Assembly (NCBI GenBank): GCA_964535295.1
Contig: CAZHUW010000001.1
Coordinates: forward strand, 677 to 64,676
Reading direction: 5' to 3'
DNA length: 64,000 bases
Source of the DNA: an uncultured Bacteroidota bacterium
Lineage (GTDB): Bacteria > CLD3 > SB21
How positions within the stretch are numbered: position 1 is the first letter of the stretch; every line of letters begins with the position of its first letter. This document shows, in pieces, positions 8,288 to 62,118 of the stretch. The position numbers were made by a program, and so were the translations under genes. The notes beneath the pieces were generated by a model. The model made no database searches and was not told where the DNA came from. It saw only the letters and a program-made list of their open reading frames with translations.

Positions 8288-8625
8288 TTCATTTTCTTCG
8301 CTGTTAAAATGATATCTTCTTCCAGGGCCTTGAAATCAGAGTCCAGTATCGATTGCTGTGAAATGATCAACGTTCTAAAACCCGTAAAATAAGATTTGTT
8401 CTTCCTGAAAACTTCTCTGAAAACCCTTTTATAATAGTTTCGCGTTACCGCGTTGCCGGTTCTTTTCCCGCACATGAATCCGACCTGCATGGGAACATCT
8501 TCCGAAGCCTCTATTGGCGAATATAAAAAATAAACAAACCGGCCGGATGCCTTCTTCCCGCCTTGAAATAATTTTTCAATCGTATCCCGCCGTGTAATGA
8601 TCATTTTTTTTGGAAGCGTTTCCAT
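8284..8625 (-). CDS. rnpA: Ribonuclease P protein component RnpA.
   Basis: 113-aa basic protein. The motif GFMCGKRTGNAVTRNYYKRVFRE matches the RnpA RNR motif region. Overlaps rsmI by 4 nt. Confidence 0.65.
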   Translation of the reverse strand: METLPKKMIITRRDTIEKLFQGGKKASGRFVYFLYSPIEASEDVPMQVGFMCGKRTGNAVTRNYYKRVFREVFRKNKSYFTGFRTLIISQQSILDSDFKALEEDIILTAKKMK

Positions 8626-22345: not shown

Positions 22346-22386
22346 CAAAAACGCCCCGGTTCATTGCCGGGGCGTTTTTTATTTTA
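22346..22386. terminator. Bidirectional intrinsic terminator.
   Basis: 10-bp GC-rich stem AACGCCCCGG (22350-22359) / CCGGGGCGTT (22367-22376) with a 7-nt loop. Flanked by an A-run and a T-run. Sits between the convergent small ORF and the S41 peptidase gene. Confidence 0.75.
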
Positions 22387-23958
22387 TTTTTTCGTTCCTG
22401 CCTCTGCGAATTTTTTCGCTTCCGGAAAATATTTAACGGCTTCTTTAATGACAGGGTCGGCCTTCAATCGAACCTGGGCCGACTCATTGAGGCTCCAAAT
22501 GTAACGGGCCAGTTCTCCTTTGATCACATTTTTCATATCCTCTTTGTCTTTTTCCAATGCTTTTTCGTCCGCTGCAACCCCTTTCTGTATTCCCAATTGG
22601 ATCAACGATTGAAATTCTGTTTCGGAAATCTCATATGATGAGAAGAATTTCTTATAATTTTCCTTATACTGATTCCGCAGAGCCGGTCCGTTCTTCTCAA
22701 GAAACTTATTCACAAATTCTCTAAAAACGCCTTTGCTCCAAAGCTTCGCATAATAGACGGTGAACGTATCGTTGTCAATGTGATAATCCGGCACAATGCC
22801 GCCGCCGCCGAAGACTTTTCGTCCCATCGCCGTGTAAAATACTTTGGTTGAGTCGGTATGCAGCGTGTCATTCAAATGCGCTTCACCGTAATAATCTTCG
22901 ATAGATTTTCCGTTATACGGACGTTGAATAAGCCTTCCGCTTGGTGTGTAATAACGCGCGGTGGTAATGCGTACCGCCGAACCGTCATTAAGATCGTATT
23001 GCGACTGAACCAGTCCTTTGCCGAAAGTTCGCTCACCTACAACAAGTGCGCGATCCAGATCCTGCAACGCCCCGGCTACGATCTCGGAGGCCGATGCGGA
23101 ATACCGGTTCACCAGAACAATAAGCGGTATCTTCCGATGTGAAAGCTTGGATGTAGAGGTATATTCTTTGGAAGAATTGCCAATACGCCCTTTGGTATAA
23201 ACGATCATTTTGCCGGCCGGCAAAAATTTATCCACAATCATTTCAGCTTGCTCCAAATAGCCACCACCATTGTTCCTCAGGTCAAGTATCAATTGCTTCA
23301 TTCCCGCGGCCTGAAGTTCCAGCAAGGCTTGTTCGATCTCATTCTCTGAAGTTTCAGCAAATTTATTCAGCCGAATAAACCCCGTCTGGTCATCCAGCAT
23401 GAACTTGGCGTCTACAGTGAAAATCGGTATCTTATCGCGAACAATATCAAATTCCAGTAATTCGCTGACGCCGGGCCGTTCTATGGTTACGTGTACTGTC
23501 GTTCCTTTCGGCCCTTTGAGCCTTTTAAAAACATCTTCCGTCGTAATATCCTTGGCAGGACTACGGTCAATTTGAACAATCTTATCACCGGCAAGAATTC
23601 CCGCCCGGTCCGACGGCGTTCCCGGTATAGGCGAAACGACCGTAAGATATCCGTTGACGATCTCAAATGAAATGCCGATGCCTTCAAAATTTCCCTGAAA
23701 CTCCTCTTTGACCTGCTTCATTTCTTTAGGCGGAATATACACAGAATGAGGATCAAGTCCTTTGAGCGCTCCTACAATAGCGTCGTCGATCAGCTTATTG
23801 GCATCCACATCTTCCACATAAGTTTTTTCGATTACATCCAGAACGCCTCGCAGTTTACCCGAACTCTGCATCGCCTGTTTACCGGTCTGCATAAACCCGG
23901 TAATAACCGCAATGACCACCACCACAAATAACGCAGGCATGATAATTCGTTTGTTCAT
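22384..23958 (-). CDS. S41-family C-terminal processing (tail-specific) peptidase.
   Basis: 524 aa. N-terminal TM, PDZ domain (GTPSDRAGILAGDKIVQID) and the S41 catalytic domain. Confidence 0.85.
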   Translation of the reverse strand: MNKRIIMPALFVVVVIAVITGFMQTGKQAMQSSGKLRGVLDVIEKTYVEDVDANKLIDDAIVGALKGLDPHSVYIPPKEMKQVKEEFQGNFEGIGISFEIVNGYLTVVSPIPGTPSDRAGILAGDKIVQIDRSPAKDITTEDVFKRLKGPKGTTVHVTIERPGVSELLEFDIVRDKIPIFTVDAKFMLDDQTGFIRLNKFAETSENEIEQALLELQAAGMKQLILDLRNNGGGYLEQAEMIVDKFLPAGKMIVYTKGRIGNSSKEYTSTSKLSHRKIPLIVLVNRYSASASEIVAGALQDLDRALVVGERTFGKGLVQSQYDLNDGSAVRITTARYYTPSGRLIQRPYNGKSIEDYYGEAHLNDTLHTDSTKVFYTAMGRKVFGGGGIVPDYHIDNDTFTVYYAKLWSKGVFREFVNKFLEKNGPALRNQYKENYKKFFSSYEISETEFQSLIQLGIQKGVAADEKALEKDKEDMKNVIKGELARYIWSLNESAQVRLKADPVIKEAVKYFPEAKKFAEAGTKK

Positions 23959-23994
23959 AGCATCTCCTTTATCATATATGCACCATACTATTTT

Positions 23995-25572
23995 TTATTT
24001 GCTTTTCAGGCGGGTATCTGTAAATTTTTTTGCCTGAGGAAAATACGTCATCGCCTGTTTCAAAGCCGGGTCATTCTGGAATCGTATCTGAGAGGCCTCA
24101 AAACTGGTCCAGATATACCGCGCCACTTCCGCTTTGACGAGGTTCTTCATCAGTTCCTTATCGGTATTGACTGCGCTCTGATCGATCGGGATACCTTTCT
24201 GCACACCAATATTGAGCATCTCCTGAACATCCGAATCGGTAAAATCAAAGGACTTGCTGAATTGAACGAATTTTGATTTATATTCCTCGCGCAGCTTCGG
24301 CCCGTTCTTTTCAAGATAATTATTGGTGAACTCCCGGAAAACGCCTTTTCCCCAAAGTTTGATATAATAAGCCGTAACCGTATCATTGTCGGTGATCCTG
24401 TAATCCGGTACGATACCGCCGCCGCCGTAGACTTTGCGGCCAACGGAAGTATAAAATACTTTGGATGTATCCGTCTGAAGCGTATCGTTAAGGCGCGCCT
24501 CTCCGTAATAATCCTCCAGCGATTTATGATCGTAGGGACGCTGTATCAAACGGCCGCTGGGCGTGTAATAACGCGCAATAGTAATACGAACGGCGGAGCC
24601 GTCATTGAGATCAAATTGATTTTGAACCAATCCTTTTCCAAAACTACGTTCACCCACAACCAAACCGCGGTCCAGATCCTGAATAGCTCCGGCCACGATC
24701 TCCGACGCCGAGGCCGATCCGCGATTGATCAGTACCACGACCGGGTAATCTCTATACGACTTCTTCTCTGTGGAATAAAATTCCTGGGTAGCTCCCGGAA
24801 TGCGCCCTTTCATGTAAACGATCATTTTACCGCCGGGAATAAATTTATCCACGATCATTTTCGCTTCTTCCAAAATACCGCCCCCGTTATTCCGCATATC
24901 CAGAATAAGTTGCTTCATACCTTTGCCTTCAAGCTCCGTCAGCGCCTGTTCGATCTCTTCTGATGTTGTCTCGGCAAAACGCACAAATCGAATATAACCC
25001 GTTTTATCATCCAACATAAACTTTGCGTCCACGCTGTACACCGGGATCTTATCGCGGATAATATCAAATTCCAATAATTCGTCCAAGCCGGCCCGCTGTA
25101 TGCTGATATGAACGACGGTCCCTTTCGGGCCGCGGAGTTTTGAAACGGCTTCTTCAGTCGTGATGCCTTTGGTGGGAACGTTATTGATCATCATGACCTT
25201 ATCGCCACCCTGAATACCGATCTTCTCCGAAGGACTGCCCGGGATAGGTGTGACAATGGTAAGTTGCCCGTTGATCACATCGATCTGGCTTCCGATCCCT
25301 TCGAAATTACCTTTGAATTCTTCTTTGACCTGTTTCAGTTCTTTTGGGGGAATATAAACGGAATGAGGACCGAGGCTTTTTAGAACCCCGACGATGGCAT
25401 CATCCACTAGTTTGTCCCCATCTACATCTTCAACATACGTTCTAGAAATAAGGTCAAGAACCGTGTTCAGCTTAACGATGTTCTTATAAGCGTTTTGGCC
25501 AACATTTGAAAAGCCCGTCACCGCAATAACGGCTAAAAGAACCAGCAAAGAAAGTCCGATCTTTTTCTTCAT
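23995..25572 (-). CDS. S41-family C-terminal processing peptidase (tandem paralog).
   Basis: 525 aa, colinear with and highly similar to the neighbouring S41 protein. Confidence 0.85.
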   Translation of the reverse strand: MKKKIGLSLLVLLAVIAVTGFSNVGQNAYKNIVKLNTVLDLISRTYVEDVDGDKLVDDAIVGVLKSLGPHSVYIPPKELKQVKEEFKGNFEGIGSQIDVINGQLTIVTPIPGSPSEKIGIQGGDKVMMINNVPTKGITTEEAVSKLRGPKGTVVHISIQRAGLDELLEFDIIRDKIPVYSVDAKFMLDDKTGYIRFVRFAETTSEEIEQALTELEGKGMKQLILDMRNNGGGILEEAKMIVDKFIPGGKMIVYMKGRIPGATQEFYSTEKKSYRDYPVVVLINRGSASASEIVAGAIQDLDRGLVVGERSFGKGLVQNQFDLNDGSAVRITIARYYTPSGRLIQRPYDHKSLEDYYGEARLNDTLQTDTSKVFYTSVGRKVYGGGGIVPDYRITDNDTVTAYYIKLWGKGVFREFTNNYLEKNGPKLREEYKSKFVQFSKSFDFTDSDVQEMLNIGVQKGIPIDQSAVNTDKELMKNLVKAEVARYIWTSFEASQIRFQNDPALKQAMTYFPQAKKFTDTRLKSK

Positions 25573-25589: not shown

Positions 25590-27779
25590 TTAATGATTAA
25601 TTTTTCTCGACAAGCTGAGGTTTATGTTTACGCGCCATACGTCACCGGGATTCAAAGAAATTTTCCAATGAGGGAAAACACAGGACTGCTGGTATACGCG
25701 TTCAAACCCCTCTTCAGAAAGCGAAATGGTTTCTACGGGAAACCGCCATACGGTAGACGGCTGATCAAAACTTAGATTAAGATCGATACTTAACCAATGA
25801 TCCACCATTCCCATTTCATTAACCGCTGAATTAATACCTTTACTCGCCAACGACCGGTCCGTTAGGGATTGGCCTGTAATATAATAATACCGGTCATCCG
25901 CTTTTCCGGCCAACAGAGTCAGGTTCAATTCCGGCCCAAAAATAGAATCGATCCTTTGTTGTCCATTGTTGCATATTTCATACGCCATTTCGACTTCACT
26001 CGAACCTGGAATCAAAGTCAAAGTTTTTTTGAGCAAAGCTTTGTTGCGATCAATCCGTCCTTCACGGAAGAACTCATATCGAATTTTTTTCTTATCCGAC
26101 AGGTCTTTACCTTGAAACGGTTGTTCAATGAAATTCCCTATCTCTAAAAAACGCCCTCTGTAGAAGTTATCAAACTCCGAATTTACCGGAATAAAATGGT
26201 CCAAAAAACTTTGACGTGTAAACCCATCATACAACAGGTATTCATGTAAATCCTTTTCTTTTGACAGTACAAGATCGTGAATACTGGCGATCTCATTCTC
26301 TTTTATTTTTTCTTTTGAAGCGCCTATTTCTGTTTTTGATCCCGTCAATTTGCTATGATATCCCTCTTCCCGCCGGGTCATCGTATCGCCAAGGTTCATC
26401 GGTACATCTTTGTACGATATCTCGAACAGCCCGGCACCATGATCTAGATCGACGTACAAATCCATTTGTCTCGTTTCAATCAGAACCTCGTCGTAGCCGT
26501 CCGCATTGTAATCGCCTTTTTCAATATGAAACCAGTTAACCGCCTCCCCGTTCTCAACAACGTCCAGGAAATTCTCACTCTGAAGCATTTCTTTGTACAT
26601 GGCATAACGGATATTATTCAGATAAATTCCGCCGAAGACGCCGTGCCAGTATGGACAATTGCATTGGGACGCCCAAAGATGATCCTGCGCTTTTTCAATC
26701 AAGCGGGCCTTTTCTTCAGCGGAACCTTGTGCGTCCGATGTCACGACCGCTTTCAGCATTTGAATGCGGTTACTCAACCTCAGCATTTTTTTGTGCATCC
26801 GGTTCGCTTCCGGATATTTCACCGAGAAATTTCGCCAGAATCCGCCGCGAACAAAGATCCCGTAGTTGTCAAATAAGGACCTTTCTTTGAGAATTTCCTC
26901 GAATTGCTCATACGCACGAAAACTCTTGACGGGAAGCGCCCAATGCTGCATCTCAGAATAAGACGAAGTCGGGATATACACTCTGCCCGCCGGTTTGATG
27001 CGGTTCGTTGCTTCGGAAAAATGAACGATATTGATCCAATCTTTGTTCTTTTCAAGTAATTTAAAGAACTTCTCCAGCCAGCCGTCTTCATAGACGTGTT
27101 TGTGGGTTTCCGGCCAAATACCGAATTTCTCACCGTCGTCCGCAAAAACGGCAATGTGCTGACCATCTTCAGTCGCTATATTCATCAGATACTCAATGGT
27201 TTTTTCAGGCTCCTGAAAAGGGATCGTATACCGGAGTGTTTTACTGATCGGAAAAACGTTGATCTTATGCCCTTCTTCCTCGGTCACAAAATAACCGTTG
27301 AGATCTTCTTCTTCAAGTCCGGTATATTTGAAATGCGTGTCATCGAGGATCACATAACGCATGGACGCCTGATTAAACGGCTTCGGCAAATGAGGCTCCC
27401 AGACTCGTTCCGCAACCCACATGCCGTTCGGCTTGACGCCGAGTTTTTCTTCACAGTATGAACTAAGTTTTTTTATCTGCCCGAGTTTGTCGTGATCCGG
27501 TATCACCGCCATAATGGGCTCATAAAATCCGCCGCCGATAACTTCGATCTGGCCGCTGTCAACCATGGCACGCAGCCGGCTGATGAACTCAGGATAAGTC
27601 CGATCGATCCATTCAAGCAGAATACCTGTAAAATGCATACCGACTTTGATCGTCGGATATTGTGCAAGCAATTCCAGAAAAGGGTTATACGCTTTTTGGT
27701 AGGCCTGATCAAAAACGAAATCAAAATTTCCGACGGGCTGGTGGTTGTGGATCCCGATGATAAAATTTATTTTTTTCAA
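25590..27779 (-). CDS. GH57-family alpha-glucan enzyme (alpha-amylase / 4-alpha-glucanotransferase-like, with DUF1925/DUF1926-type C-terminal regions).
   Basis: N-terminus IIGIHNHQPVGNF...EVIGGGFYEP is the GH57 catalytic signature. 729 aa. Confidence 0.8.
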   Translation of the reverse strand: MKKINFIIGIHNHQPVGNFDFVFDQAYQKAYNPFLELLAQYPTIKVGMHFTGILLEWIDRTYPEFISRLRAMVDSGQIEVIGGGFYEPIMAVIPDHDKLGQIKKLSSYCEEKLGVKPNGMWVAERVWEPHLPKPFNQASMRYVILDDTHFKYTGLEEEDLNGYFVTEEEGHKINVFPISKTLRYTIPFQEPEKTIEYLMNIATEDGQHIAVFADDGEKFGIWPETHKHVYEDGWLEKFFKLLEKNKDWINIVHFSEATNRIKPAGRVYIPTSSYSEMQHWALPVKSFRAYEQFEEILKERSLFDNYGIFVRGGFWRNFSVKYPEANRMHKKMLRLSNRIQMLKAVVTSDAQGSAEEKARLIEKAQDHLWASQCNCPYWHGVFGGIYLNNIRYAMYKEMLQSENFLDVVENGEAVNWFHIEKGDYNADGYDEVLIETRQMDLYVDLDHGAGLFEISYKDVPMNLGDTMTRREEGYHSKLTGSKTEIGASKEKIKENEIASIHDLVLSKEKDLHEYLLYDGFTRQSFLDHFIPVNSEFDNFYRGRFLEIGNFIEQPFQGKDLSDKKKIRYEFFREGRIDRNKALLKKTLTLIPGSSEVEMAYEICNNGQQRIDSIFGPELNLTLLAGKADDRYYYITGQSLTDRSLASKGINSAVNEMGMVDHWLSIDLNLSFDQPSTVWRFPVETISLSEEGFERVYQQSCVFPHWKISLNPGDVWRVNINLSLSRKINH

Positions 27780-27797: not shown

Positions 27798-28718
27798 TTA
27801 TTCAACAATCGCTTTAACAAAATCATGCGGATTAAATTCTTCCAGATCTTCCATTCCTTCTCCGATACCGATGTAGAAAACGGGGATCTTCAATTCCTGT
27901 TGTATCGCCAGAACGACCCCTCCTTTCGCTGTGCCGTCCAATTTTGTCAGAACAAGCCCCGTGATCCGCGCCGTTTGTGAGAATTGTTTTGCCTGCTGGA
28001 TCGCGTTCTGGCCCGTGGTTGCATCCAGCACCAAAAGTGTTTCATGCGGCGCCTGCGGAATTTGTTTCTCGATCACTCGACGAATCTTCTTCAGTTCTTC
28101 CATCAGATTCACTTTCGTGTGCAATCTGCCGGCCGTATCGACCAGAACCACGTCAAACCCGCGCGATTTGGCTGAGGCCAGAGCATCAAACACGACCGCC
28201 GCCGGATCGGCGCCTTCAGCCTGCCGGATGATTTCAACTTGCGATCGTTCTGCCCAAACGGCTAACTGACCGCCCGCCGCCGCCCTGAACGTATCGCCTG
28301 CCACAAGGAGAACTTTGTGCCCGGCTTTCGCATAACGATGCGCAAGTTTTCCGATCGTGGTGGTTTTACCAGTTCCATTAACCCCAACGATCAGAATAAC
28401 AAATGGTTTCTGCTGAGACAATTTTTTGTCCAGCGAAACGGCATCCGAGATAACAACCAATTTTTCGATCTCTTCCTCAAGCATGGAATAAATGATCTTA
28501 CTATCTCCATTTTTTTCTTTTTTTACTCGCTGCCGGATCTTTTCAAGAATTTTATGTGAGGTTGCAACGCCTATATCTGCGGTGATCAGGATCTCTTCGA
28601 TCTGCTCAAGAAGAGCATCATCGATTCCCGTTTTGCCCTGTAAAACGGCTGACAAACGGCCGAAAAGGTTATTCCGCGTTTTGGCCAGACGTTGTTTTAA
28701 AGTATCTATGATCGACAT
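27798..28718 (-). CDS. ftsY: Signal-recognition-particle receptor FtsY (short form).
   Basis: SRP54-type NG domain. G1 motif ILIVGVNGTGKTTTIGKLA and the G2-G4 motifs. Confidence 0.9.
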   Translation of the reverse strand: MSIIDTLKQRLAKTRNNLFGRLSAVLQGKTGIDDALLEQIEEILITADIGVATSHKILEKIRQRVKKEKNGDSKIIYSMLEEEIEKLVVISDAVSLDKKLSQQKPFVILIVGVNGTGKTTTIGKLAHRYAKAGHKVLLVAGDTFRAAAGGQLAVWAERSQVEIIRQAEGADPAAVVFDALASAKSRGFDVVLVDTAGRLHTKVNLMEELKKIRRVIEKQIPQAPHETLLVLDATTGQNAIQQAKQFSQTARITGLVLTKLDGTAKGGVVLAIQQELKIPVFYIGIGEGMEDLEEFNPHDFVKAIVE

Positions 28719-28736: not shown

Positions 28737-29126
28737 TCAGTTTTGACGAAAAAAATAATACAGATGAGCAGCCGCAATGCCAATAGCGTCGGCTAAGAAA
28801 TCAAACGCTGACGCGTAGCGGTTAGGTACAAACATCTGATGCATCTCATCGGATGCGCCATAAATCAAACTAAACAGAAGGCTCATTCCCATGACCCACA
28901 CAGCCCCTTTTTTATAAACATCCCCGTAGTGCGCGAACGCTCTGTAAGAAAATAGAGCCAGAACACCGAATACGCCGCTGTGAATGAATTTATCCGCAGA
29001 CCATATGTCAAGGGGCGGAAGCGACGTACCGTGTATCGAAGAAGCTGCAAAAATGAGCAGCGCCCACACCGCCAGCGGATAAAAATATTTCGGCTGCAGT
29101 TTTTGCGCGGTATTTGCTGATTTCAC
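28737..29126 (-). CDS. VanZ-like family membrane protein.
   Basis: 129 aa with 4 TMs. Conserved GASDEMHQMFVPNR...DFLADAIG pattern of VanZ-like proteins. Confidence 0.7.
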   Translation of the reverse strand: MKSANTAQKLQPKYFYPLAVWALLIFAASSIHGTSLPPLDIWSADKFIHSGVFGVLALFSYRAFAHYGDVYKKGAVWVMGMSLLFSLIYGASDEMHQMFVPNRYASAFDFLADAIGIAAAHLYYFFRQN

Positions 29127-29139
29127 AATTACTTTTATG

Positions 29140-31548
29140 TTAAAAGGCCTGTCCTAAGGTGATCTGAAATGCAAGCGGGGAAATCAATTTTGCTCCTTTG
29201 GAACTGATAGTACGTATTTCATTCGTTGCTACATCACGTACTTTCAGTTTGCTGATGCTGACCAGTTTATAACCCACATCGATACGTACAGGCCCAATCA
29301 GAGTCCTGATCCTGGTACCGATCCCGGCAGCCCCCACCGGTTTTACAGGCAATTCTTTGTTGAAATTTTTGAAATCATATTCCGTCCATACATTACCGTA
29401 ATCAAAAAAAGTCGCAAGGTCCATCCCGCTTATGACGTCATTGGGATTCCGTGAAACGTACAGATTATAGCGGAGTTCGATACTGGTCTCGAGGATGCTG
29501 TTGCCGCCAAGGAATGTTAGCCGGGCTTTTCCTCCGGACGTATCTTCTTCGATCACGCCTATTTCCTTGATCCCCCATCCGCGTATACTATTGGGGCCTC
29601 CGCCGTAGTACTGTTCACTGACCGGGATCTGAGTCTTGATCTGACCGACGTAATAAGGAATGTCCGAGCCGATGCGAAAGCGCAGTGCCAGCGAAAGTTT
29701 ACGGGTCAATCCGAAATATTTCCGGTTATCTAAACTGAGTTTCAGATATTTCAGATCGGACGGCAAAATAAATCCGGCAAAATCACTGTTGAGGTAAATC
29801 AGAAAACCGGTATTGGGATAGAAAAAATCATTACTGCTGTTGAAAGTAAATCCAAGCCTGGAATTTGTCGTAAAAAAGTTTTTATCGGCATTGTCACTGG
29901 CTTCCGTACGAAGCAATAATTTCCTGGTAAACGAAAACGGCGTTAGGCTCATGTTGAGTTGCCGCGTAAGCTGGCGAATAAAGGTCGGAGAAACCTCATA
30001 ACTGAGTTCGTCAAACGCCTTCGTATTATTTCTCTCTCCGGACACCGTGAAGAGAAGATCGTTCTCCGCATCCCGCGTAAAAGGCAATATGAATGACGGC
30101 TGTCTGAACGTGACTTTTCCCTGCATATAATTTGCAAATAACGGATCCGAGACGAATCCCTTGCTGACTTTACCGGAAACTTCAAGCTTTCGGGCGCCGC
30201 CCATGAAGTTCCTGCTCTGCCACGTAACCTGAAGGGCCAGGAAAGGTAGGTTACTCAAGCCGCGCCGTTCGCTTGCAGGAAGATCTCGAAAATCCGTAGT
30301 AATGCCGAGACCCGGTTTGATGATCTTCTCTTTTCGTTCATTCACGGACATGGTTACGTTGAGCGTATCCACGGGGATACCGAACATTTCAAGATCCAGA
30401 TCCTTACCGGCCAAGCGGTTGTCCGCTTTTTGTTTGATCGAATCCAGTATGGCCGGTAACTCCGTCCTGGAAGCAATGGCGGTCGAGTCAACTCGTCCGC
30501 GTTTTTTTGAAAGTATGGGTTTGACCGATCGAAAGACGGAGAGCCCGTTGATCTGCCCTACACTGAGCCCGAGCTTATCCGGATCAAACGGTTTGCCCTC
30601 TTTGTAACGCACTTTAAGCAGGATCACTTTGTCATCGACGATCTTTTTTGTGGTATCGACTGACGGTTTCCCATTCTGATTCTTATAATAATTTCCGGAG
30701 ACATCGGTTTTGCCGAAAACGGTGTAACGCCCGGGCAATACGGTATAGGCAACGTTTACCTTATGCGGCGTATCCGCAACCGAGTCAATCGATTCTGAAA
30801 TTTCTGCTGAAAAATATCCATGTTGACCAAAAATTTTCTGTATCGTTGCCTTATCAATATCGATATTTTCCCTTGCCAGCATATCGCCTTTCTGAACGAT
30901 CAATTGGGAGACGATCCGTTTCGCTTCCAGGTCGCCTTTGGGATCAACCAGGGGTATTGAAGAATTAACTTTTATACGCGGATCTTCTGCAAGAACCGTA
31001 GGCGCCCCTTCATGTATGTATATTTTAACCGATATTTTTCTGCGGTCCTTCGAAAAGGTTGCCTTATATCTTACAATCTTGGCGTCAAAATATCCCTGTC
31101 CTTCATACAGCGACCGTATCACGCGAAGATCTTCCGTGAGTATCTCGTTCACAAAGAAATACCGGTTCGACCCGAGCTCCGGATCCCAAAAAGTCAAAGT
31201 CACTATACGGGTCACATTATTGACCAGCCATGATCCCGCCTTCGTAAAAAAACCGAGTTCGCGGTCCTCTTCTTCGCCCACCTTAAGTGAGAGATTAAGA
31301 AAGTCATCATCAAATACCTTTAATCCGGTTTTTTTGCCTTTACTGTCAACCCCCTCAAACTCATAATCTTTACCGTCAACAAATACACTGTCCTCAAATG
31401 TCGGTAACGAATCGATCCACATGCCGGAAGAATCAATATATTCGGCACGAAAATGTGTTTTTTCGGACTGCGCAACCAGCGTCGAATGACCATACAGGAT
31501 CAAGGCCAGCCATAAGGAAACTATGTGATGTAGGACGGTAAAACGCAT
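29140..31548 (-). CDS. Omp85-family outer-membrane protein (BamA/TamA-like: POTRA region plus C-terminal beta-barrel).
   Basis: Signal peptide from Met21 of the long ORF (start 31548). C-terminal barrel ending in ...GQAF with an aromatic terminus. Size ~800 aa. Confidence 0.6.
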   Translation of the reverse strand: MRFTVLHHIVSLWLALILYGHSTLVAQSEKTHFRAEYIDSSGMWIDSLPTFEDSVFVDGKDYEFEGVDSKGKKTGLKVFDDDFLNLSLKVGEEEDRELGFFTKAGSWLVNNVTRIVTLTFWDPELGSNRYFFVNEILTEDLRVIRSLYEGQGYFDAKIVRYKATFSKDRRKISVKIYIHEGAPTVLAEDPRIKVNSSIPLVDPKGDLEAKRIVSQLIVQKGDMLARENIDIDKATIQKIFGQHGYFSAEISESIDSVADTPHKVNVAYTVLPGRYTVFGKTDVSGNYYKNQNGKPSVDTTKKIVDDKVILLKVRYKEGKPFDPDKLGLSVGQINGLSVFRSVKPILSKKRGRVDSTAIASRTELPAILDSIKQKADNRLAGKDLDLEMFGIPVDTLNVTMSVNERKEKIIKPGLGITTDFRDLPASERRGLSNLPFLALQVTWQSRNFMGGARKLEVSGKVSKGFVSDPLFANYMQGKVTFRQPSFILPFTRDAENDLLFTVSGERNNTKAFDELSYEVSPTFIRQLTRQLNMSLTPFSFTRKLLLRTEASDNADKNFFTTNSRLGFTFNSSNDFFYPNTGFLIYLNSDFAGFILPSDLKYLKLSLDNRKYFGLTRKLSLALRFRIGSDIPYYVGQIKTQIPVSEQYYGGGPNSIRGWGIKEIGVIEEDTSGGKARLTFLGGNSILETSIELRYNLYVSRNPNDVISGMDLATFFDYGNVWTEYDFKNFNKELPVKPVGAAGIGTRIRTLIGPVRIDVGYKLVSISKLKVRDVATNEIRTISSKGAKLISPLAFQITLGQAF

Positions 31549-31561
31549 GGGCGGGAACAGA

Positions 31562-31903
31562 TTACTTTGTTTTTTTATCAGAAGGATAATCTTGCTGCAA
31601 TTTTTCAACGGCCAAGCCGTTCAGGAGACGCTCATCGACTTCAATTTCATCGACGATACCGATAACGGCCGCCTCGATGGATAATTCATTGGGTGTGTCG
31701 GTTATGGCACGCCGGGCTGCGTGCCCGTAGGAGCATATAACCAATTCCCCGATTCCGGCACCAAGCGTGTCCGCCACCACCACCACATTTGTATTCGGCG
31801 CTTTATCAATATTTACTGGATGAATCATGAGGAATCGGAGCGATTTGACATTATCCACTTTTTTTGTGGCCCAAACCGTTCCAACAACGCGTCCGATGAA
31901 CAT
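31562..31903 (-). CDS. EutN/CcmL/PduN-family bacterial-microcompartment vertex (BMC-P) protein homolog. Solitary within this window.
   Basis: 113 aa. GTVWATKKVDNVKSLRFLMIH...VVADTLGAGIGELVICSYGHAARRA...IEAAVIGIVDEI aligns block-for-block with CcmL/EutN. ~20-residue charged C-terminal extension. Confidence 0.75.
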   Translation of the reverse strand: MFIGRVVGTVWATKKVDNVKSLRFLMIHPVNIDKAPNTNVVVVADTLGAGIGELVICSYGHAARRAITDTPNELSIEAAVIGIVDEIEVDERLLNGLAVEKLQQDYPSDKKTK

Positions 31904-31921: not shown

Positions 31922-33427
31922 TTAAAAAATAATCATATAAACGGCCAAGCCTCCCGCCAGTCCACAAACCATATTGACCCGGTCATTATGAAAAAACTCC
32001 CAGCCGCGTATCAGCGTCGTGACCTTTTCGCAGTGTATCCTGCGCTCGGTCACTTTACCGCAAAGATCACATATATATTGCGACTGAAGGGTTGCTCCCA
32101 GCATGCTGTCAACAAGGCTCCCGATGACTCCTGACAAGATAATCCAAAAAAAACTCATCTCCAACGAACTTTTCAAAAATAACTCCGGATTGACCAGATA
32201 ACCGCTGACAGCAACACAAAACGCGCCGGCCGCCCCCCCTAATGTACCCAATAGCGAGACGCCTCCCGAAGTGCCCGGCGCCACTTTTTTCAATGTTAGA
32301 ATACTCCTGGGAGTCGATTTAAAAAATACGCCGATCTCGGTAGCCCACGTATCGCTTGTTACGGCTGCTAAAATACCCAAAAAGACCGGATACCAGTTGG
32401 GATGCGGAAAATAGAAGGCCCCGATGATTATGATACCAGCAAGCCCGCCGTTGGCAATGACCTGTGCAGCATCACGTGTACTGCCCTTTTCAAAAACGAG
32501 ATCGAATTTCTTCTTGCGCCGTTTTCCCATCTTGGACAGAAGGCTCGACGTTACAAAAAAAGTCATGATCGGCGCCGCCCAAACCCAACCCCCCAAGCCA
32601 AATATCAATGTTCCCAAAAGAAAGGCTGTTACAGCGCCTCCGGCATTGAGAAAACGGAAGTAATGAGATAAAATTGAAACCACCAGTGACAACAAACTTC
32701 CAAATGCGAATTGAAAGGCCGCAGAATCGGGAAAATTGGTCATGACCTGAACGGTGAATGCAACGCCGAGCGGTATGGTCATATTATCGGATCCTTTAGC
32801 GGAAACAGCCTCCGCAGCCGTTGCAACCAATGAGCCTGTAAAGGCCGTCAGCAACGCCAGTTCCCATGACCACGTTAGAAACTCCCAGCGGTCAAGAAAA
32901 TAAAACGAGATCAAGATCACGCCGAAAGAGACCACCAACATCCCGGCTGATCCTTCGAGACTTTTATTATCGCCAGTCAAATTGTAGTTGTGCGGATGCG
33001 TGAAACGGGTACCAATAAGTGCCGCTGATGCATCGCCGACAGCCAAAACCAGCATTGCCGTCATGAGAGCGGGTTTGTTGCTTTCCCAACATAAGAACGT
33101 AAGAAGCGTAAAAGCAAGAGGATACCAAGCTGTGCCATACGTCAGGCGCCCTGTTCCGTGCATGCCTTTCAGCCAATGAAACCGGACCGCCAAATAATCA
33201 AAAACGGTAAAAAAGGTCCCGAGTATTACGGCGGGCATTTTAGAAGTTAAAAAAAGCGGGGATACGAAAACCAGAAGCCCCGTTCCCACGTGCGTGATCT
33301 TTCTGGTGATCTCTCCGCTCCAATGAAAATGGCGGCGGATCAATTCAACCGACGTCAACAAGGTTCCGAGAATAAAAAAAGCGGAGAAACCGTAGTACCA
33401 ATCCTGTGGCAAGTTAAGATCGTTCAT
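31922..33427 (-). CDS. Integral-membrane fusion: N-terminal CTP-dependent polyprenol kinase-like domain (dolichol kinase / phytol kinase VTE5 family) plus C-terminal DUF92/COG1836 (TMEM19/VTE6-like) domain.
   Basis: The N-terminal half carries RKITHVGTG, LAVGDASAALIG and KSLEGSAGM, the polyprenol-kinase hallmarks. The C-terminal half is a Gly-rich polytopic region typical of DUF92. Confidence 0.55.
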   Translation of the reverse strand: MNDLNLPQDWYYGFSAFFILGTLLTSVELIRRHFHWSGEITRKITHVGTGLLVFVSPLFLTSKMPAVILGTFFTVFDYLAVRFHWLKGMHGTGRLTYGTAWYPLAFTLLTFLCWESNKPALMTAMLVLAVGDASAALIGTRFTHPHNYNLTGDNKSLEGSAGMLVVSFGVILISFYFLDRWEFLTWSWELALLTAFTGSLVATAAEAVSAKGSDNMTIPLGVAFTVQVMTNFPDSAAFQFAFGSLLSLVVSILSHYFRFLNAGGAVTAFLLGTLIFGLGGWVWAAPIMTFFVTSSLLSKMGKRRKKKFDLVFEKGSTRDAAQVIANGGLAGIIIIGAFYFPHPNWYPVFLGILAAVTSDTWATEIGVFFKSTPRSILTLKKVAPGTSGGVSLLGTLGGAAGAFCVAVSGYLVNPELFLKSSLEMSFFWIILSGVIGSLVDSMLGATLQSQYICDLCGKVTERRIHCEKVTTLIRGWEFFHNDRVNMVCGLAGGLAVYMIIF

Positions 33428-33430
33428 CGA

Positions 33431-33661
33431 CTATACGGCGGAATGGGCCGATTGTTTGTTGCGTTCCGAAGCACGGGATTTGAGAGGTACTCCGTCATTG
33501 GACAGCACTTCGAAGGGACAAATTTCTACGCAAAAATTACATTCTGTGCAACTGGCGTGAATGACGCTCAGGCGAACTTCAGTCAGCTCCATCGCATCGA
33601 AAGGACATACGCCGACGCAGGCGCCGCAGAGATCACATTTATCGTAATTGATCTGGATCAT
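33431..33661 (-). CDS. 2x[4Fe-4S] ferredoxin.
   Basis: Two CxxCxxCxxxCP motifs (CDLCGACVGVCP and CTECNFCVEICP) in 76 aa. Confidence 0.85.
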   Translation of the reverse strand: MIQINYDKCDLCGACVGVCPFDAMELTEVRLSVIHASCTECNFCVEICPFEVLSNDGVPLKSRASERNKQSAHSAV

Positions 33662-33669
33662 AATAAAAC

Positions 33670-34809
33670 TTACACTTTGTCGAGGGCATTTTTGATATCA
33701 CTGATCAAATCTTCCGCATCCTCGCATCCGACGGAGAGACGGACCAGTCCGTCCGTCAGGTTTAGTTTTAACCGGTCTTCGAGCGGAACGGAACCGTGTG
33801 TCATACTCGCCGGGTGACAGATGAGGCTTTCCACTCCACCTAAGCTTTCAGCTAAAGCGAATATCTTAACATGGCGCAGTAAATTCTTTCCGTTCTCCAG
33901 CGATCCCAATTCGATCGAGATCATACCGCCGAATCCGCTCATTTGTTTTTTGGCAAGTTCATGCTGCGGATGCGAAGCGAGGCCGGGATAATATACTTTC
34001 TTAACTTTATTGTGCCCATTCAGGAAATTGGCCATCTGTATGGCATTCTCATTATGCTGGCGCATGCGCAGGGCCAGGGTTTTAGTGGAGCGCATCACGA
34101 GCCAACAGTCGAACGGCGAAGGCACACCGCCGATCGCGTTCTGCAGAAAGCGCAATTTTTCATGAAGATCCTGTCCGCTAGTAACAATGATCCCTCCGAT
34201 GACGTCGCTGTGGCCGTTGATATACTTCGTCGTGCTGTGCAATACGATATCGATGCCGAATTCCAACGGACGCTGAAAATAAGGGCTCATGAAAGTATTG
34301 TCTACAACGGTAATGAATTTATGTTTTTTACCAATTTCCGTCACGGCATTGAGGTCCGTGATGGTCAGCATCGGATTGGTCGGCGTTTCGACGTAGATCA
34401 TTTTTGTTTCTTTGGTGATCGCCGCCTTAATATTTTTCATATCCGACGTATCCACCCAAGAAAAGGTCAGGCCGTAGCGGCGCATGATCTTATCAAAAAA
34501 ACGGAACGTGCCGCCGTACACATTATCGGATACGATCACATGGTCGCCGGCGCTCAATAATCCCGCAACCGCCTGAATGGCCGACATACCGCTGGAGAAT
34601 GCAAGACCGAATTTGCCTTTCTCAAGCGCGGCGATATTATTTTCAAGCGCGACACGGGTCGGGTTAATCGTTCGTCCGTAGTCAAAACCCTTGCTGACGC
34701 CCAATTCCTCCTGAGCGTACGTAGAGGTCTGGTAGATCGGTGTGATGACGGCGCCGGTTGTTGGATCGGCTGTCTGGCCTGCGTGAATCGAATCTGTCAA
34801 AAAACCCAT
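33670..34809 (-). CDS. PLP-dependent transsulfuration enzyme (cystathionine gamma-lyase / gamma-synthase / methionine gamma-lyase family).
   Basis: 379 aa, Cys/Met-metabolism PLP fold. Lys-containing STTKYINGHSD motif. Sits next to cystathionine beta-synthase, so probably the gamma-lyase of reverse transsulfuration. Confidence 0.8.
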   Translation of the reverse strand: MGFLTDSIHAGQTADPTTGAVITPIYQTSTYAQEELGVSKGFDYGRTINPTRVALENNIAALEKGKFGLAFSSGMSAIQAVAGLLSAGDHVIVSDNVYGGTFRFFDKIMRRYGLTFSWVDTSDMKNIKAAITKETKMIYVETPTNPMLTITDLNAVTEIGKKHKFITVVDNTFMSPYFQRPLEFGIDIVLHSTTKYINGHSDVIGGIIVTSGQDLHEKLRFLQNAIGGVPSPFDCWLVMRSTKTLALRMRQHNENAIQMANFLNGHNKVKKVYYPGLASHPQHELAKKQMSGFGGMISIELGSLENGKNLLRHVKIFALAESLGGVESLICHPASMTHGSVPLEDRLKLNLTDGLVRLSVGCEDAEDLISDIKNALDKV

Positions 34810-34835: not shown

Positions 34836-36182
34836 TTATTTTCCTGCCAAATAATCCAGAAGGTCGATGCGTGTCATGATACTGATCGGCTTACGTTGTT
34901 CGTCCACCACAACCACCGCCCCGCTCTGACGAAATATTTCCTGCAGGGTCGAGATCGGTGTATTCGGCCCGACCATCGGCACCTGGCGGTTCATGCATTT
35001 TGAAATGAGAGCCGCGCTTTGGCCTGCGCCTGAACTCAAATATTCGATGAGATCGGATTCCGAAACAATACCTACCAGCACGCCGCCGGACGTAACGGGT
35101 AATTGGGAGATCCCTTTTTGACGCATAACGGCAATCACATTCTGCACGGTCTGCATATCATCGGAACAGACCAACTGCGGACGCTGGGACTGATCGAGGA
35201 TATCTTTGACCTTTCCCTGAATAGGTTTCGTTTCAAAGAATTTATTCTCGCGCATCCACTTGTCGTCCACGAACTTGGTCATATAATTACGCACGCCGTC
35301 GGGCAAAACCACAATACAATTCTGTCCCTCTTTCAATTTCGGCGCCTTCTGCAGAGCCGCGAATAAAGCCGATCCGCTGGAACCGCCGACAAGCAATCCT
35401 TCTTCGCGTATCAGGCGTCGCGATAATAAGAACGACGGCTGGTCCTCCGTTTTGACCCATTCATCGATCAGTGACCTGTCAAGCACATCCGGAACAAAAT
35501 CATACCCGATGCCTTCAACTTTGTAAGTTCCGACATCCGTTCCTCCGCCGAGGATCGAACCTACCGGATCCGCGCCGACCACGATACATTTAGGATTATG
35601 TTCTTTCAATCTCTTTGCTACTCCAGTGATCGAACCGCCGGTGCCGGCGCCCATCACGACCATGTCGATCTTCCCGTTAAGATCCTCGATCATTTCCCGC
35701 GCCGTTTCATTGTAATGAACGTTCGGGTTGTTAGGGTTGGAATATTGATCCAGAATATGCGCATTGGGCAGTTCTGACTGCAGGCGCCGCGCCACGCTGA
35801 TATGGCTTTCCGGAGAATCAAACGACGCTTCCGTCGGGGTTCGGATGATCTCCGCGCCTAAAGCTTCGAGTACAACTTGTTTTTCACGGCTCATTTTTTC
35901 CGGCATCGTAATGATCACGCGGTAGCCGCGAACAGCACCCGCTAAAGCTATTCCGATACCGGTATTGCCGCTGGTCGGTTCGATCAACGTATCGCCCGGT
36001 TTGATTCGGCCCTCGCGTTCCGCGGCTTCGACCATGGATTTGCCGATGCGGTCTTTGAGTGAACCGCCGGGATTAAGGAATTCACATTTGGCATATAGAT
36101 TACAGGCCAGATGTGCGCCAACCCGGTTCAGTTTGACTAGCGGCGTTCGCCCGATAACTTCGATAATGTTATTAAACTTCAT
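34836..36182 (-). CDS. Cystathionine beta-synthase-like protein: CysK/CysM-type PLP domain with a C-terminal CBS-domain pair.
   Basis: N-terminus KLNRV...PGGSLKDRIG...SGNTGIGIALAG (PLP fold type II) followed by two CBS motifs. 448 aa. Confidence 0.8.
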   Translation of the reverse strand: MKFNNIIEVIGRTPLVKLNRVGAHLACNLYAKCEFLNPGGSLKDRIGKSMVEAAEREGRIKPGDTLIEPTSGNTGIGIALAGAVRGYRVIITMPEKMSREKQVVLEALGAEIIRTPTEASFDSPESHISVARRLQSELPNAHILDQYSNPNNPNVHYNETAREMIEDLNGKIDMVVMGAGTGGSITGVAKRLKEHNPKCIVVGADPVGSILGGGTDVGTYKVEGIGYDFVPDVLDRSLIDEWVKTEDQPSFLLSRRLIREEGLLVGGSSGSALFAALQKAPKLKEGQNCIVVLPDGVRNYMTKFVDDKWMRENKFFETKPIQGKVKDILDQSQRPQLVCSDDMQTVQNVIAVMRQKGISQLPVTSGGVLVGIVSESDLIEYLSSGAGQSAALISKCMNRQVPMVGPNTPISTLQEIFRQSGAVVVVDEQRKPISIMTRIDLLDYLAGK

Positions 36183-36225: not shown

Positions 36226-36633
36226 TCAGAAGTAGATCTCTTTTTTGGCTATCATGGCCTGCAGACGGTCGGATTCTTCCAGCGATTTTTTCACAAATTC
36301 ATTGGTCTTGGTCTTATCCTCGCCGAGAACTACCAAGAAGGCATCCGAGAGCAATTGCGTCAGAACAAAGACCCTTTTGGCGCCAACGGTTACCGTAGTT
36401 TGTATATCTTCGCGCATGCCGTCGGACGAGGTCGATGCCGGAACCGAAAAGATCCTTTTCCCGTGATCGAGAAATACCGATGCAAACGAACCGAGCTGAG
36501 CCTCCGCATCATCGTCTTTGACATTGGAGTGCAGGGCCAGTCCATCGGAAGAAATGATCACCACGGATGTTCCGGGAGCGATCTTTTCAAGGTGTGTGAT
36601 GGTCTGATCAAAAAATTCTTTATGAGAGATCAT
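36226..36633 (-). CDS. Roadblock/LC7 (MglB-like) domain protein.
   Basis: 135 aa with the alpha-beta-beta-alpha-beta pattern (VVIISSDGLALHSN...). Weaker match than its neighbour. Confidence 0.5.
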   Translation of the reverse strand: MISHKEFFDQTITHLEKIAPGTSVVIISSDGLALHSNVKDDDAEAQLGSFASVFLDHGKRIFSVPASTSSDGMREDIQTTVTVGAKRVFVLTQLLSDAFLVVLGEDKTKTNEFVKKSLEESDRLQAMIAKKEIYF

Positions 36634-36645
36634 GGCTTACCTTCG

Positions 36646-36996
36646 CTAATTCACGTGTGATTTGAGTTCTTTCATGGCGCAGCTGATATCATAAAGGACG
36701 AGCCCCAGCTTGGCACTGGTGGTGGTAAAAACGGTCAGCAGCGTATCTTTGCCGGCGCGGGTAATGATGATAAAACCTTCCTTACCACGGATGGAGATCT
36801 GCGACATTTCGCCAAGCATGGCGTCCTCGGCGCTGGTCTCGCCCTGATTGATCAAGGCCGCCGAGATCGCGGCGACGCGTTCATCTTCAATATTATCGGG
36901 AAGAAGGGAAGCGATGATGAGACCGTCGTTGCTCACCAACGCGACGGCGCTCACACCGGGTGTATCGTTTCTTAAGCGCTTGAGGATTTCTTCCAT
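36646..36996 (-). CDS. Roadblock/LC7 (MglB-like) domain protein.
   Basis: 116 aa. VSAVALVSNDGLIIASLLPD...GFIIITRAGKDTLLTVFT is a typical Roadblock fold signature. Confidence 0.65.
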   Translation of the reverse strand: MEEILKRLRNDTPGVSAVALVSNDGLIIASLLPDNIEDERVAAISAALINQGETSAEDAMLGEMSQISIRGKEGFIIITRAGKDTLLTVFTTTSAKLGLVLYDISCAMKELKSHVN

Positions 36997-37118
36997 TGTC
37001 CACCTGTTATAATGAGTTTAACCGAGGGAGAGATATGATTTTGAATGGGGCAAATTAAAGAGAAAATCGAATAAAGTCAACGTACAAAAACCGGTATTGG
37101 GTCAGAGGAAGTCGTGCG

Positions 37119-37484
37119 TCAGGCGTCGGCTTCACGGTAACTCTGGACGGCAGAATCCAGATCGTCATAAAATTCGAACACCCGGTCGAGTTTGGCGATC
37201 TCAAACATTTTGGAGACTTTTTCGTGCGCTCCGATGATACGCAGGTCCCCGTCTTCGGCATTGAATATCCTCCGCCCGAGCAGAAGGGACCCCAGGCCGG
37301 AACTATCGATAAAATCCACAGCCGAGAGATCGACCACGACTTCATGAATACCTGCGTCCTTCATTTTTAAAAATTCCTGTTTGTACAAGTGGGATATCCG
37401 GCTGTCCATGCGCGCATCTTTGATGTGCATGACCGTTACTTCATTGACATCCTCTTCTGTAAAATTGATCTGCTTTTCTTCCAT
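37119..37484 (-). CDS. STAS-domain anti-sigma-factor antagonist (SpoIIAA-like).
   Basis: 121 aa. VDLSAVDFIDSSGLGSLL carries the conserved phosphorylatable Ser in the DSSG motif. Confidence 0.8.
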   Translation of the reverse strand: MEEKQINFTEEDVNEVTVMHIKDARMDSRISHLYKQEFLKMKDAGIHEVVVDLSAVDFIDSSGLGSLLLGRRIFNAEDGDLRIIGAHEKVSKMFEIAKLDRVFEFYDDLDSAVQSYREADA

Positions 37485-44350: not shown

Positions 44351-45461
44351 ATGATCGAAATCTCCAACATCACTGCACGACTGGAACAAGCCCGCGAAAA
44401 ACTCTCCGACCTTCGGAGGTTTCTTTGACCTCGCTCAAAGAGAAGAAAAAATATCCAATTTAGAAGCCCAAACCACCGTCGCCGATTTCTGGAATAATAA
44501 CCAGCGAGCACAACAGATCATGCAGGAGATTTCATCAGAAAAATCCTGGGTTGAAGGTTGGAAAAAACTTGACGTGCAGTGCGAAGACCTTCACATGCTT
44601 CTCGAAATTGCCGAAGAAGAAAACGATGAGGCCACTCTAAAATCCATTGATTCCGAGTTGACTGAACTCGGCAAGGAGTTATCGAAACTAGAGCTTCGCG
44701 CCTATTTCACGAACCCGGAAGATACCAAAACAGCGGTGCTTACCATTCATCCCGGAGCCGGAGGAACGGAATCCCAGGATTGGGCCGAAATGCTCATGCG
44801 CATGTATCAGCGCTGGGGCGTTAACCGAGGAATGCACGTACAAATACTCGATATTCTTGACGGCGAAGGGGCAGGTATTAAAAGCGTTACCATGGAATTT
44901 ACCGGTGAATTTGCATATGGTCTCTTAAAATGTGAAAGCGGAGTTCATCGTCTGGTAAGAATCTCGCCTTTCGACTCTAACGCACGGCGACACACGTCTT
45001 TTGCCTCCGTATTCGCCATGCCGGAATTGGATGAGGTCGAAGCAAAGATTGAGATCAATCCGTCGGACCTGAAAGTTGATACTTACAGGTCAGGCGGGAA
45101 AGGCGGACAAAACGTTAACAAAGTCGAGACTGCAGTTCGTTTTACCCATATTCCCACCGGGATTGTTGTGGCCTGCCAGAGCGAACGATCACAATTCAAA
45201 AACCGCGAAATTGCGATGAAACTGCTTATTTCTAAATTATATCAGTTGCAAAAACGGAATGAACAGGAAAAGCTTGACAAGATCGAAGCAACAAAATCAG
45301 ACATTGCCTGGGGAAATCAAATCCGATCCTACGTATTACATCCGTATAATCTCGTAAAAGACCATCGTACCGAGATGGAGACAAGCAATACGCAGGCCGT
45401 ACTTGGCGGTGATATTGACATGTTCATTGAAGCCTGTTTAAAAAATAAAATTGTTTCATAA
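44351..45461 (+). CDS. prfB: Peptide chain release factor 2, requiring a programmed +1 ribosomal frameshift at 44423-44429 (CTT TGA C).
   Basis: ORF1 ([25 protein letters not shown]) ends at in-frame TGA 44426-44428. The +1 frame continues [15 protein letters not shown]...SPF...GGQNVN (GGQ motif) to 45461. An internal SD-like GGAGG lies 3 nt upstream of the CTTTGAC shift site, as in E. coli prfB. Confidence 0.85.
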
Positions 45462-62091: not shown

Positions 62092-62118
62092 TCAACTACT
62101 TTTACTAACGGAGATCTT

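Follow-up and report, generated by a model that had tools for sequence, protein, structure and literature searches.

Shells of bacterial microcompartments (BMCs) are closed at their twelve vertices by BMC-P pentamers. The gene considered here, a 113-aa member of the EutN/CcmL family of BMC-P proteins, lies on a 64,000-nucleotide stretch of contig CAZHUW010000001.1 from an uncultured Bacteroidota bacterium; this whole stretch is called the window below. The described systems closest to it are the 'fragmented' loci FRAG1-8 of Sutter et al. (2021), in which shell genes lie in up to six places, mostly far from enzymes, and for which the consulted parts of that survey give no detectable encapsulation peptides, no assigned enzymes and an unknown function (PMC8217296). 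Their reported hosts are Ignavibacteriae and related phyla, Calditrichaeota, Marinimicrobia, Gemmatimonadetes, Planctomycetes and candidate phyla (PMC8217296). In the examined portion of the BMC-P tree of that work, the waterBlue2 clade contains an Acidobacteria ACI-locus protein and a Gemmatimonadetes FRAG8 protein (both 111 aa), Caldithrix abyssi Cabys_2141 (97 aa, marked 'fragmented (sat) (omitted)'), a Marinimicrobia FRAG4 satellite protein (107 aa) and Planctomycetes MIC3 proteins (PMC8217296).

The window gene is a further example of a scattered or satellite BMC-P gene in this fragmented-locus class and not a new kind of system, and its novelty is lowered because lone scattered BMC-P genes are already catalogued as FRAG loci in the consulted parts of the survey (PMC8217296). 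The explanation that we favour, with moderate confidence, is that it supplies a functional vertex pentamer to a FRAG-type microcompartment whose hexamer genes lie elsewhere in the genome. The gene and its motifs, the latter placed by checked translation, are as follows.

31562..31903, minus strand: BMC-P (EutN/CcmL family) gene, 113 aa, stop codon included, ATG start and TAA stop (open reading frame (ORF) list and PF03319)
31745..31762, minus strand: GAGIGE, residues 48-53, the BMC-P GAGxGE motif
31649..31657, minus strand: IVD, residues 83-85, conserved BMC-P motif ending the last core strand
31565..31648, minus strand: C-terminal tail, residues 86-113 (EIEVDERLLNGLAVEKLQQDYPSDKKTK)

In a Pfam scan, the protein matched PF03319 (EutN_CcmL) at 86.4 bits, well above the cut-off of 25 (E 1.9e-24), and residues 1-85 covered profile positions 1-83 of 83. 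A match of this score over the whole profile is not due to chance. A preliminary description of the sequence had placed the ORF in this family, and the placement stands; the blocks that it quoted (GTVWATKK, SLRFLMIH, VVADTLGAGIGELVICSYGHAARR and AAVIGIVDEI) are all present in the translation. By sequence alone, eleven distinct solved BMC-P chains were matched in the PDB, headed by 5V74 of the Haliangium ochraceum (HO) shell (E 9e-14) and GrpN 4I7A (2e-13), with several CcmL chains among the top matches. A protein search gave 1361 homologs, and each of the best 120 of these is a single-domain PF03319 protein of 78-146 aa. Scores against the NCBIfam equivalogs remained far under the cut-offs for CcmL (64.9 vs 125 bits), EutN (39 vs 118), CsoS4B (24.9 vs 88.9) and CsoS4A (23.7 vs 120), and hence the window protein is a BMC-P of none of these named subtypes.

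The fold is in accordance with this assignment. An AlphaFold2 monomer model from 64 aligned family members had a pLDDT of 83.7, with the core above 90; an earlier model from a 26-sequence alignment (pLDDT 59) was set aside as too poor. All 47 of the 47 Foldseek matches of the better model in the PDB at E <= 1e-3 are BMC-P proteins, comprising CcmL, GrpN, EutN, CsoS4A/B, HO BMC-P and MSM0273, and they superpose with root-mean-square deviations of 1.7-4.1 A over about 84-96 aligned columns. The model thus predicts for the window BMC-P the small beta-barrel fold of solved BMC-P subunits.

Residues at the expected shell contacts are retained as well. I83 and D85 of the IVD motif are invariant in both family alignments (A1 and A2), the window IVD aligns with that of 5V74 and 4I7A, and this motif reportedly has a role at the hexamer interface, as put forward by Sutter et al. 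in 2017. Within GAGIGE, G48, A49, G50 and E53 are invariant and G52 is nearly so in the same alignments. For the alpha-carboxysome shell, a recent review describes a salt bridge between the corresponding motif of CsoS4A and the Arg of the hexamer (A/P)RPH motif, together with a hydrogen bond to the Lys of hexamer KAA (PMC13370225). The window family has, in addition, invariant residues of its own: W11, P29, Y59 and E77, the last with E replacing D.

Selection was followed among the ten closest relatives (L017-L026 of the compared loci), whose BMC-P proteins are 83-91% identical to that of the window; together with the window they are called the window lineage here. They derive from metagenome-assembled genomes (MAGs) labelled 'uncultured Bacteroidota bacterium', 'Bacteroidetes bacterium' or 'bacterium'. 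Over an 88-codon BMC-P core, non-synonymous differences amounted to 0.015-0.07 per site and synonymous differences to 0.65-0.89, which is near saturation, and the ratio of the two rates (dN/dS) was about 0.01-0.03 where computable, the L021 pair being left out of the comparison. A BMC-P gene that stands apart from every other BMC gene could be a relic, left to decay after the loss of a microcompartment locus, or a spurious ORF, yet its frame is intact in at least 11 species and matches the full PF03319 profile, non-synonymous change is lower than synonymous change by a factor of roughly 20-50, and FtsY, in the same operon, is less well conserved. These conservation data refute the relic reading, to which we give next to no probability. 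The ORF encodes a functional BMC-P protein, as family, fold, motif retention and purifying selection indicate, and its product presumably forms pentamers.

Comparison of consensus sequences between the window lineage and orthologs linked to genes for BMC-H, the shell hexamer protein, revealed seven positions that are fixed differently. Five are conservative (R/K, V/L, I/L, S/A and E/D) and the other two make up a two-residue loop insertion, so that nothing in these sequences suggests relaxed or redirected selection on the window BMC-P.

The C-terminal tail was modelled with low confidence from about residue 95, with a short one-turn helix at 91-94 (AlphaFold2). It spans 24-29 residues in proteins of the window lineage, 14-30 (median 26) in orthologs adjoining BMC-H and 0-45 in the remaining orthologs. 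The tail sequence differs from phylum to phylum, and an LLxGLxxxxL pattern is retained only inside the window lineage. The tail had earlier been called atypical, which proved mistaken: orthologs beside BMC-H and aldehyde dehydrogenase genes carry tails of 14-30 residues. Judged from the alignments, the tail is a property of the whole orthogroup, shell-linked members included, and because BMC-H-linked orthologs bear tails too, it is no argument for a role outside microcompartments.

The orthogroup itself reaches well beyond Bacteroidota. A scan of one genome per GTDB species found a relative of the window BMC-P in at least 529 species genomes. For the compared loci, flanks of up to 10 kb were taken, neighbouring genes were clustered and cluster representatives were annotated with Pfam. 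Outside the window lineage, these comprise 70 loci from Calditrichota, Fidelibacterota (Marinimicrobia), Gemmatimonadota, Acidobacteriota (mostly Pyrinomonadaceae), Zixibacteria, Delongbacteria and a few others, in which BMC-P is 50-73% identical to the window protein. A PF00936 (BMC-H) gene is present in the flanks of 31 of the 70, and a PF00171 aldehyde dehydrogenase gene lies directly upstream of the BMC-P ortholog in 22 loci. Both adjoin the ortholog in Acidobacteriota, Gemmatimonadota and Zixibacteria; identity to the window protein is 69% for a Gemmatimonadota ortholog adjoining BMC-H. Acidobacteriota loci typically run BMC-H, acylating aldehyde dehydrogenase, BMC-P, ACT, Zn-ribbon, DUF711, further genes and again BMC-H. 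PduS-like and tandem-BMC (PduT-like) genes are added in Zixibacteria and in one Calditrichota locus, and in Calditrichota and Fidelibacterota there are generally only ACT and DUF711 genes after the ortholog.

In a neighbour-joining tree, the orthogroup formed a single tight clade, which a long branch separates from HO BMC-P, GrpN and CcmL, and the window lineage is nested among sequences linked to ACT and DUF711 genes. Because of this nesting, the position between DUF92 and Omp85 genes that the gene has in the window is derived and the gene has been relocated. This tight clade, the 50-69% identity and the conservative nature of the fixed differences together argue that the window BMC-P is orthologous to the BMC-P that adjoins BMC-H and aldehyde dehydrogenase genes in ACI/FRAG8-like loci. 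Moreover, orthologs of 111 aa in Gemmatimonadota and 99 aa in a Caldithrix abyssi MAG agree with the tree entries above, and since taxa and protein lengths match, the orthogroup probably corresponds to waterBlue2 as seen in the examined part of the tree, an equation of taxa and lengths rather than of sequences.

Several features of these loci deserve record. Between BMC-H and BMC-P, loci of Acidobacteriota and Gemmatimonadota encode an aldehyde dehydrogenase of 634 aa (L074 5218-7122), with members of its cluster in 23 other loci; PF00171 covers residues 10-271 only, and a long Pro/Ala-rich C-terminal extension follows, with a conserved terminal segment of about 45 aa. One Acidobacteriota MAG has two orthogroup copies, L063 (JAFAZX010000020.1) and L073 (JAFAZX010000012.1), with 60% and 58% identity, and both adjoin aldehyde dehydrogenase and BMC-H genes. 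L083 (Gemmatimonadota) has two tandem BMC-P genes.

According to the explanation that we favour, the BMC-P gene would have moved from a metabolosome context into a housekeeping operon in the window lineage. Five subunits would assemble into a truncated-pyramid pentamer whose GAGxGE loops would engage the Arg/Lys motifs at BMC-H hexamer edges and which would cap a shell with hexamers encoded elsewhere in the genome. BMC-H genes should accordingly exist outside the window, and BMC-P is probably co-transcribed constitutively with the housekeeping operon.

Within the window, the gene is solitary. Sixty non-overlapping ORFs of at least 70 aa were called, and the Pfam scan of all of them found no PF00936 (BMC-H/T), PF00171, phosphotransacylase or glycyl-radical enzyme and no ACT_6 or DUF711 domain. 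Six-frame phmmer searches with five BMC-H queries gave no match below E 0.1 in the window and serve only as a back-up to the Pfam scan. Neither a second BMC-P gene nor a rubisco or ethanolamine lyase gene was found in the 64 kb. The preliminary description had likewise stated that the window holds no shell or signature enzyme genes, and the scan of the 60 ORFs bears this out. Over 64 kb, the gene has neither another shell gene nor a known BMC enzyme gene near it, and this separation is one of the marks of FRAG loci. Another 113-aa ORF, at 8284-8625, was suspected to be a BMC-P paralog and turned out to encode the RNase P protein.

Some of these observations weigh against a pentamer that serves a shell encoded elsewhere. 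BMC-H is absent not only from the window but also from the flanks of the ten related species, about 1-10 kb on each side as contigs allow; ACT and DUF711 genes are likewise absent from these flanks. Catabolic organelles are normally inducible, and it is unusual to find a component of one encoded in a constitutive housekeeping operon. Of the loci from other phyla, 24 extend for 8 kb or more in both directions; BMC-H is present in 8 of these and missing from the other 16. For Caldithrix abyssi, the examined parts of the published trees, with a partial BMC-H listing, show two BMC-P, one PduT-like BMC-T and no BMC-H (PMC8217296). Finally, the most constant neighbour of the orthogroup is the ACT/DUF711 pair and not BMC-H.

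This last point rests on clear counts. The gene after the ortholog encodes an ACT protein in 41 of the 64 loci with enough downstream sequence, and of 50 loci outside the window lineage, 47 have ACT_6 (PF13740) and/or DUF711/UPF0210 (PF05167) no more than five genes away (examples are L016 10001-12189, L047 9965-12458, L040, L030, L067, L072 and L082). The ACT counts are lower bounds, since spurious antisense ORFs probably mask some ACT genes in the high-GC loci of Acidobacteriota. The linkage holds with or without BMC-H close by. Concerning the ACT proteins themselves (L016 10363-10824, L047 10642-11091, L061 7010-7465, L067 10416-10922 and others), the N-terminus is a conserved stretch of about 45 aa that holds two amphipathic helices (e.g. 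MAELSEQDIRRLTEEALKQLG...VEKVVRQAV), after which come a low-complexity linker and the ACT domain. Microcompartment encapsulation peptides have this architecture, and it is present in BMC-H-linked and unlinked loci. In view of the linkage in 47 of 50 loci and of this N-terminus, the ACT and DUF711 proteins are candidate cargo or regulators of cryptic organelles.

An ACT-domain protein with a lineage-specific N-terminus was noted for FRAG4 in the consulted parts of Sutter et al. (PMC8217296), and it fits the ACT neighbour found beside the orthologs. ACT is noted only for FRAG4 in the supplements as consulted, and DUF711/pfam05167 does not appear in them (PMC8217296). Literature searches linking DUF711/UPF0210 to microcompartments returned nothing beyond Sutter et al. 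(2021), with results swamped by the term 'microcompartment', and those on orphan BMC-P without BMC-H likewise returned nothing beyond that paper.

The same observations could come from an orphan pentamer with a shell-independent role, that is, a genome without BMC-H in which an OB-fold-like ring is kept for another job. We consider this a real if lesser possibility. Candidate jobs would be that of a partner of the ACT/DUF711 pair or a role tied to the co-transcribed envelope and secretion genes. The gene is solitary in 64 kb and in ten related species, its operon order is stable in species whose FtsY has diverged to 61% identity, and the context is that of constitutive housekeeping genes. In other phyla, ACT/DUF711 genes are the constant neighbours and BMC-H is often missing from the flanks. 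Furthermore, conservation of BMC-P across phyla (50-73% identity, with 22-30 invariant positions in cross-phylum comparisons of the orthogroup) looks high for the BMC-P family. However, the hexamer-contact motif is invariant, only conservative changes separate the window lineage from BMC-H-linked orthologs, and we know of no shell-independent function for any BMC-P. In addition, adjacency to Omp85 may be an accident of the gene insertion site, and the ACT/DUF711 partnership, if real, is not reflected in the window lineage, since neither gene is adjacent there. That the orthogroup, or at least the window branch, works without any microcompartment shell and is expressed constitutively with envelope and secretion genes has in our estimate a real, if minor, chance. 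The preliminary description had offered a satellite gene and a non-BMC pentamer as the two alternatives; the pair was well chosen, and the arguments drawn from the tail and from a supposed polyprenol kinase fail.

A pentamer could also cap a shell of non-canonical facets, made of tandem-domain BMC-T (PduT-like) trimers only or of a divergent hexamer beyond the reach of PF00936. In L031 (Calditrichota), the ortholog is followed by PduS-like, tandem-BMC (PduT-like), ACT and DUF711 genes, and the combination of BMC-P and PduT-like BMC-T without BMC-H in the examined tree parts for Caldithrix abyssi points in the same direction, although the BMC-H tree listing is partial and a Caldithrix BMC-H may still exist. 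No BMC-T gene was found in the window or in related loci, and to our knowledge no shell lacks single-domain BMC-H; this arrangement is therefore unlikely. Weighing these rivals, we retain the vertex pentamer of a fragmented microcompartment as the preferred explanation.

The window gene belongs to a long co-directional array on the minus strand with short spacers, transcribed in the order CBS, CGL, ferredoxin, DUF92, BMC-P, Omp85, VanZ, FtsY and GH57. Apart from BMC-P, its members are the following.

34836-36182, minus strand: cystathionine beta-synthase-type PALP+CBS pyridoxal phosphate (PLP) enzyme (CBS; families precomputed on L010/L011)
33670-34809, minus strand: cystathionine gamma-lyase-type PLP enzyme (CGL; families precomputed on L010/L011)
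33431-33661, minus strand: 2x[4Fe-4S] ferredoxin (Pfam)
31922..33427, minus strand: 501-aa DUF92 membrane protein, upstream of BMC-P (PF01940, 226 bits, residues 246-492)
29140..31548, minus strand: Omp85/POTRA outer-membrane protein (BamA/TamL-like), 802 aa, downstream of BMC-P (PF01103 and PF07244)
28737-29126, minus strand: VanZ (Pfam)
27798-28718, minus strand: FtsY (Pfam families precomputed on orthologous contigs L001 and L010)
25590-27779, minus strand: GH57 (Pfam families precomputed on orthologous contigs L001 and L010)

Spacers at the BMC-P gene measure 18 nt upstream, from the DUF92 stop, and 13 nt downstream, to the Omp85 start. In the mechanical ORF list, the Omp85 frame runs to a TTG at 31608, and the calls for L001 and L002 (identical contigs) use the ATG at 31548. 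The latter is most likely the start, and therefore the gene does not overlap BMC-P. Omp85 scored under the cut-offs of the NCBIfam BamA and TamL models. A promoter and terminator scan of 25-39 kb found no sites in the short BMC-P spacers, with a sigma-70 consensus that is not expected to fit this group. The preliminary description had set the BMC-P gene between an Omp85 gene and a polyprenol-kinase fusion. Omp85 downstream and a DUF92 membrane protein upstream are confirmed, and the supposed kinase half is not: the N-terminal 245 residues of the DUF92 protein have no Pfam match even at E <= 1.

Conservation of this neighbourhood, proposed earlier as a check on the gene, came out positive in the ten related species for the Omp85-BMC-P-DUF92 core. 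The order DUF92, BMC-P, Omp85, VanZ, FtsY, GH57 is kept in L017-L026 wherever contigs extend far enough. DUF92 adjoins BMC-P in L003 and L017-L025, the VanZ-FtsY-GH57 order is seen in L010-L012, L018, L020 and L022-L026, and the upstream order CBS, CGL, ferredoxin is kept in L020-L026. Identities to the window in the ten related species are 83-91% for BMC-P, 66-89% for the ferredoxin (Fer4), 75-93% for CGL, 40-93% for CBS, 61-83% for FtsY, 51-85% for Omp85, 41-81% for DUF92 and 45-74% for GH57, and BMC-P has the highest minimum identity among the compared array genes. The DUF92 fusion of the window lineage is thus kept in position and poorly in sequence (41-81%). No Bacteroidetes or Ignavibacteria entry is present in the examined parts of waterBlue2 (PMC8217296), and with respect to those parts the window lineage and its DUF92-BMC-P-Omp85 arrangement appear uncatalogued.

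Other features were observed along the way. Two paralogous S41/CtpB-like PDZ peptidases (524 and 525 aa) are encoded in tandem at 22384-25572 on the minus strand, and the pair is present in several related loci. At 36226-37484, also on the minus strand, two Roadblock/LC7 proteins (one weak) and a STAS protein are encoded beside an ABC ATPase with oligo_HPY, an arrangement kept upstream of the array in relatives. A release-factor-2-like ORF at 44520-45461 on the plus strand starts at PCRF profile position 29; a prfB +1 programmed frameshift is probably involved, with the short first frame in the 400-nt gap upstream. The sole RNA gene detected in the window is a tRNA-Leu, and about 880 bp at 62092-62971 are free of ORFs of 70 aa or more and of matches to Rfam or tRNAs.

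The locus offers a clean case for the open question of FRAG function: a single vertex gene is fixed in a constitutive housekeeping operon and is among its best-conserved genes. Should BMC-H genes be present elsewhere in these genomes, part of an organelle would be constitutively expressed and essential enough for its sequence to be frozen. If the genomes are without BMC-H, a shell protein would have a life outside shells; this would be the first such function for a microcompartment vertex protein. Krupovic and Koonin (2017) proposed that BMC-P was exapted from a cellular OB-fold-like ancestor (PMC5683377), and a shell-independent BMC-P, if real, could be a living example of that ancestor.

Compared with known systems, the window protein shares Pfam family and fold with carboxysomal CcmL/CsoS4 and enteric EutN, but does not reach their equivalog cut-offs. 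The best solved relatives by sequence, over residues 1-89, are 5V74 (Haliangium ochraceum) and 4I7A (GrpN), which share GAGxGE and IVD and, for the predicted model, have target-normalised TM-scores of about 0.78-0.86; they are only about 37-38% identical to the window protein, and these structures are without the 24-29-residue tail of the window family. Cabys_2141 and the Marinimicrobia FRAG4 BMC-P, as given in the consulted parts of the survey, resemble the window gene in being PF03319 proteins of 97-113 aa from the FCB group, encoded far from BMC-H and signature enzymes, and Calditrichota/Fidelibacterota orthologs are 54-73% identical to the window protein. Those genes precede ACT and DUF711 genes, whereas the window gene has DUF92 and Omp85 as its neighbours, and the 64 kb contain neither an ACT nor a DUF711 gene. 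In the ACI loci of Acidobacteriota (Pyrinomonadaceae) and FRAG8 loci of Gemmatimonadota, the BMC-P copies sit in a metabolosome core (BMC-H, aldehyde dehydrogenase, BMC-P, ACT, Zn-ribbon, DUF711, BMC-H). The window copy is without these neighbours, yet it belongs to one orthogroup with them, at 50-69% identity and with motifs and tail type in common.

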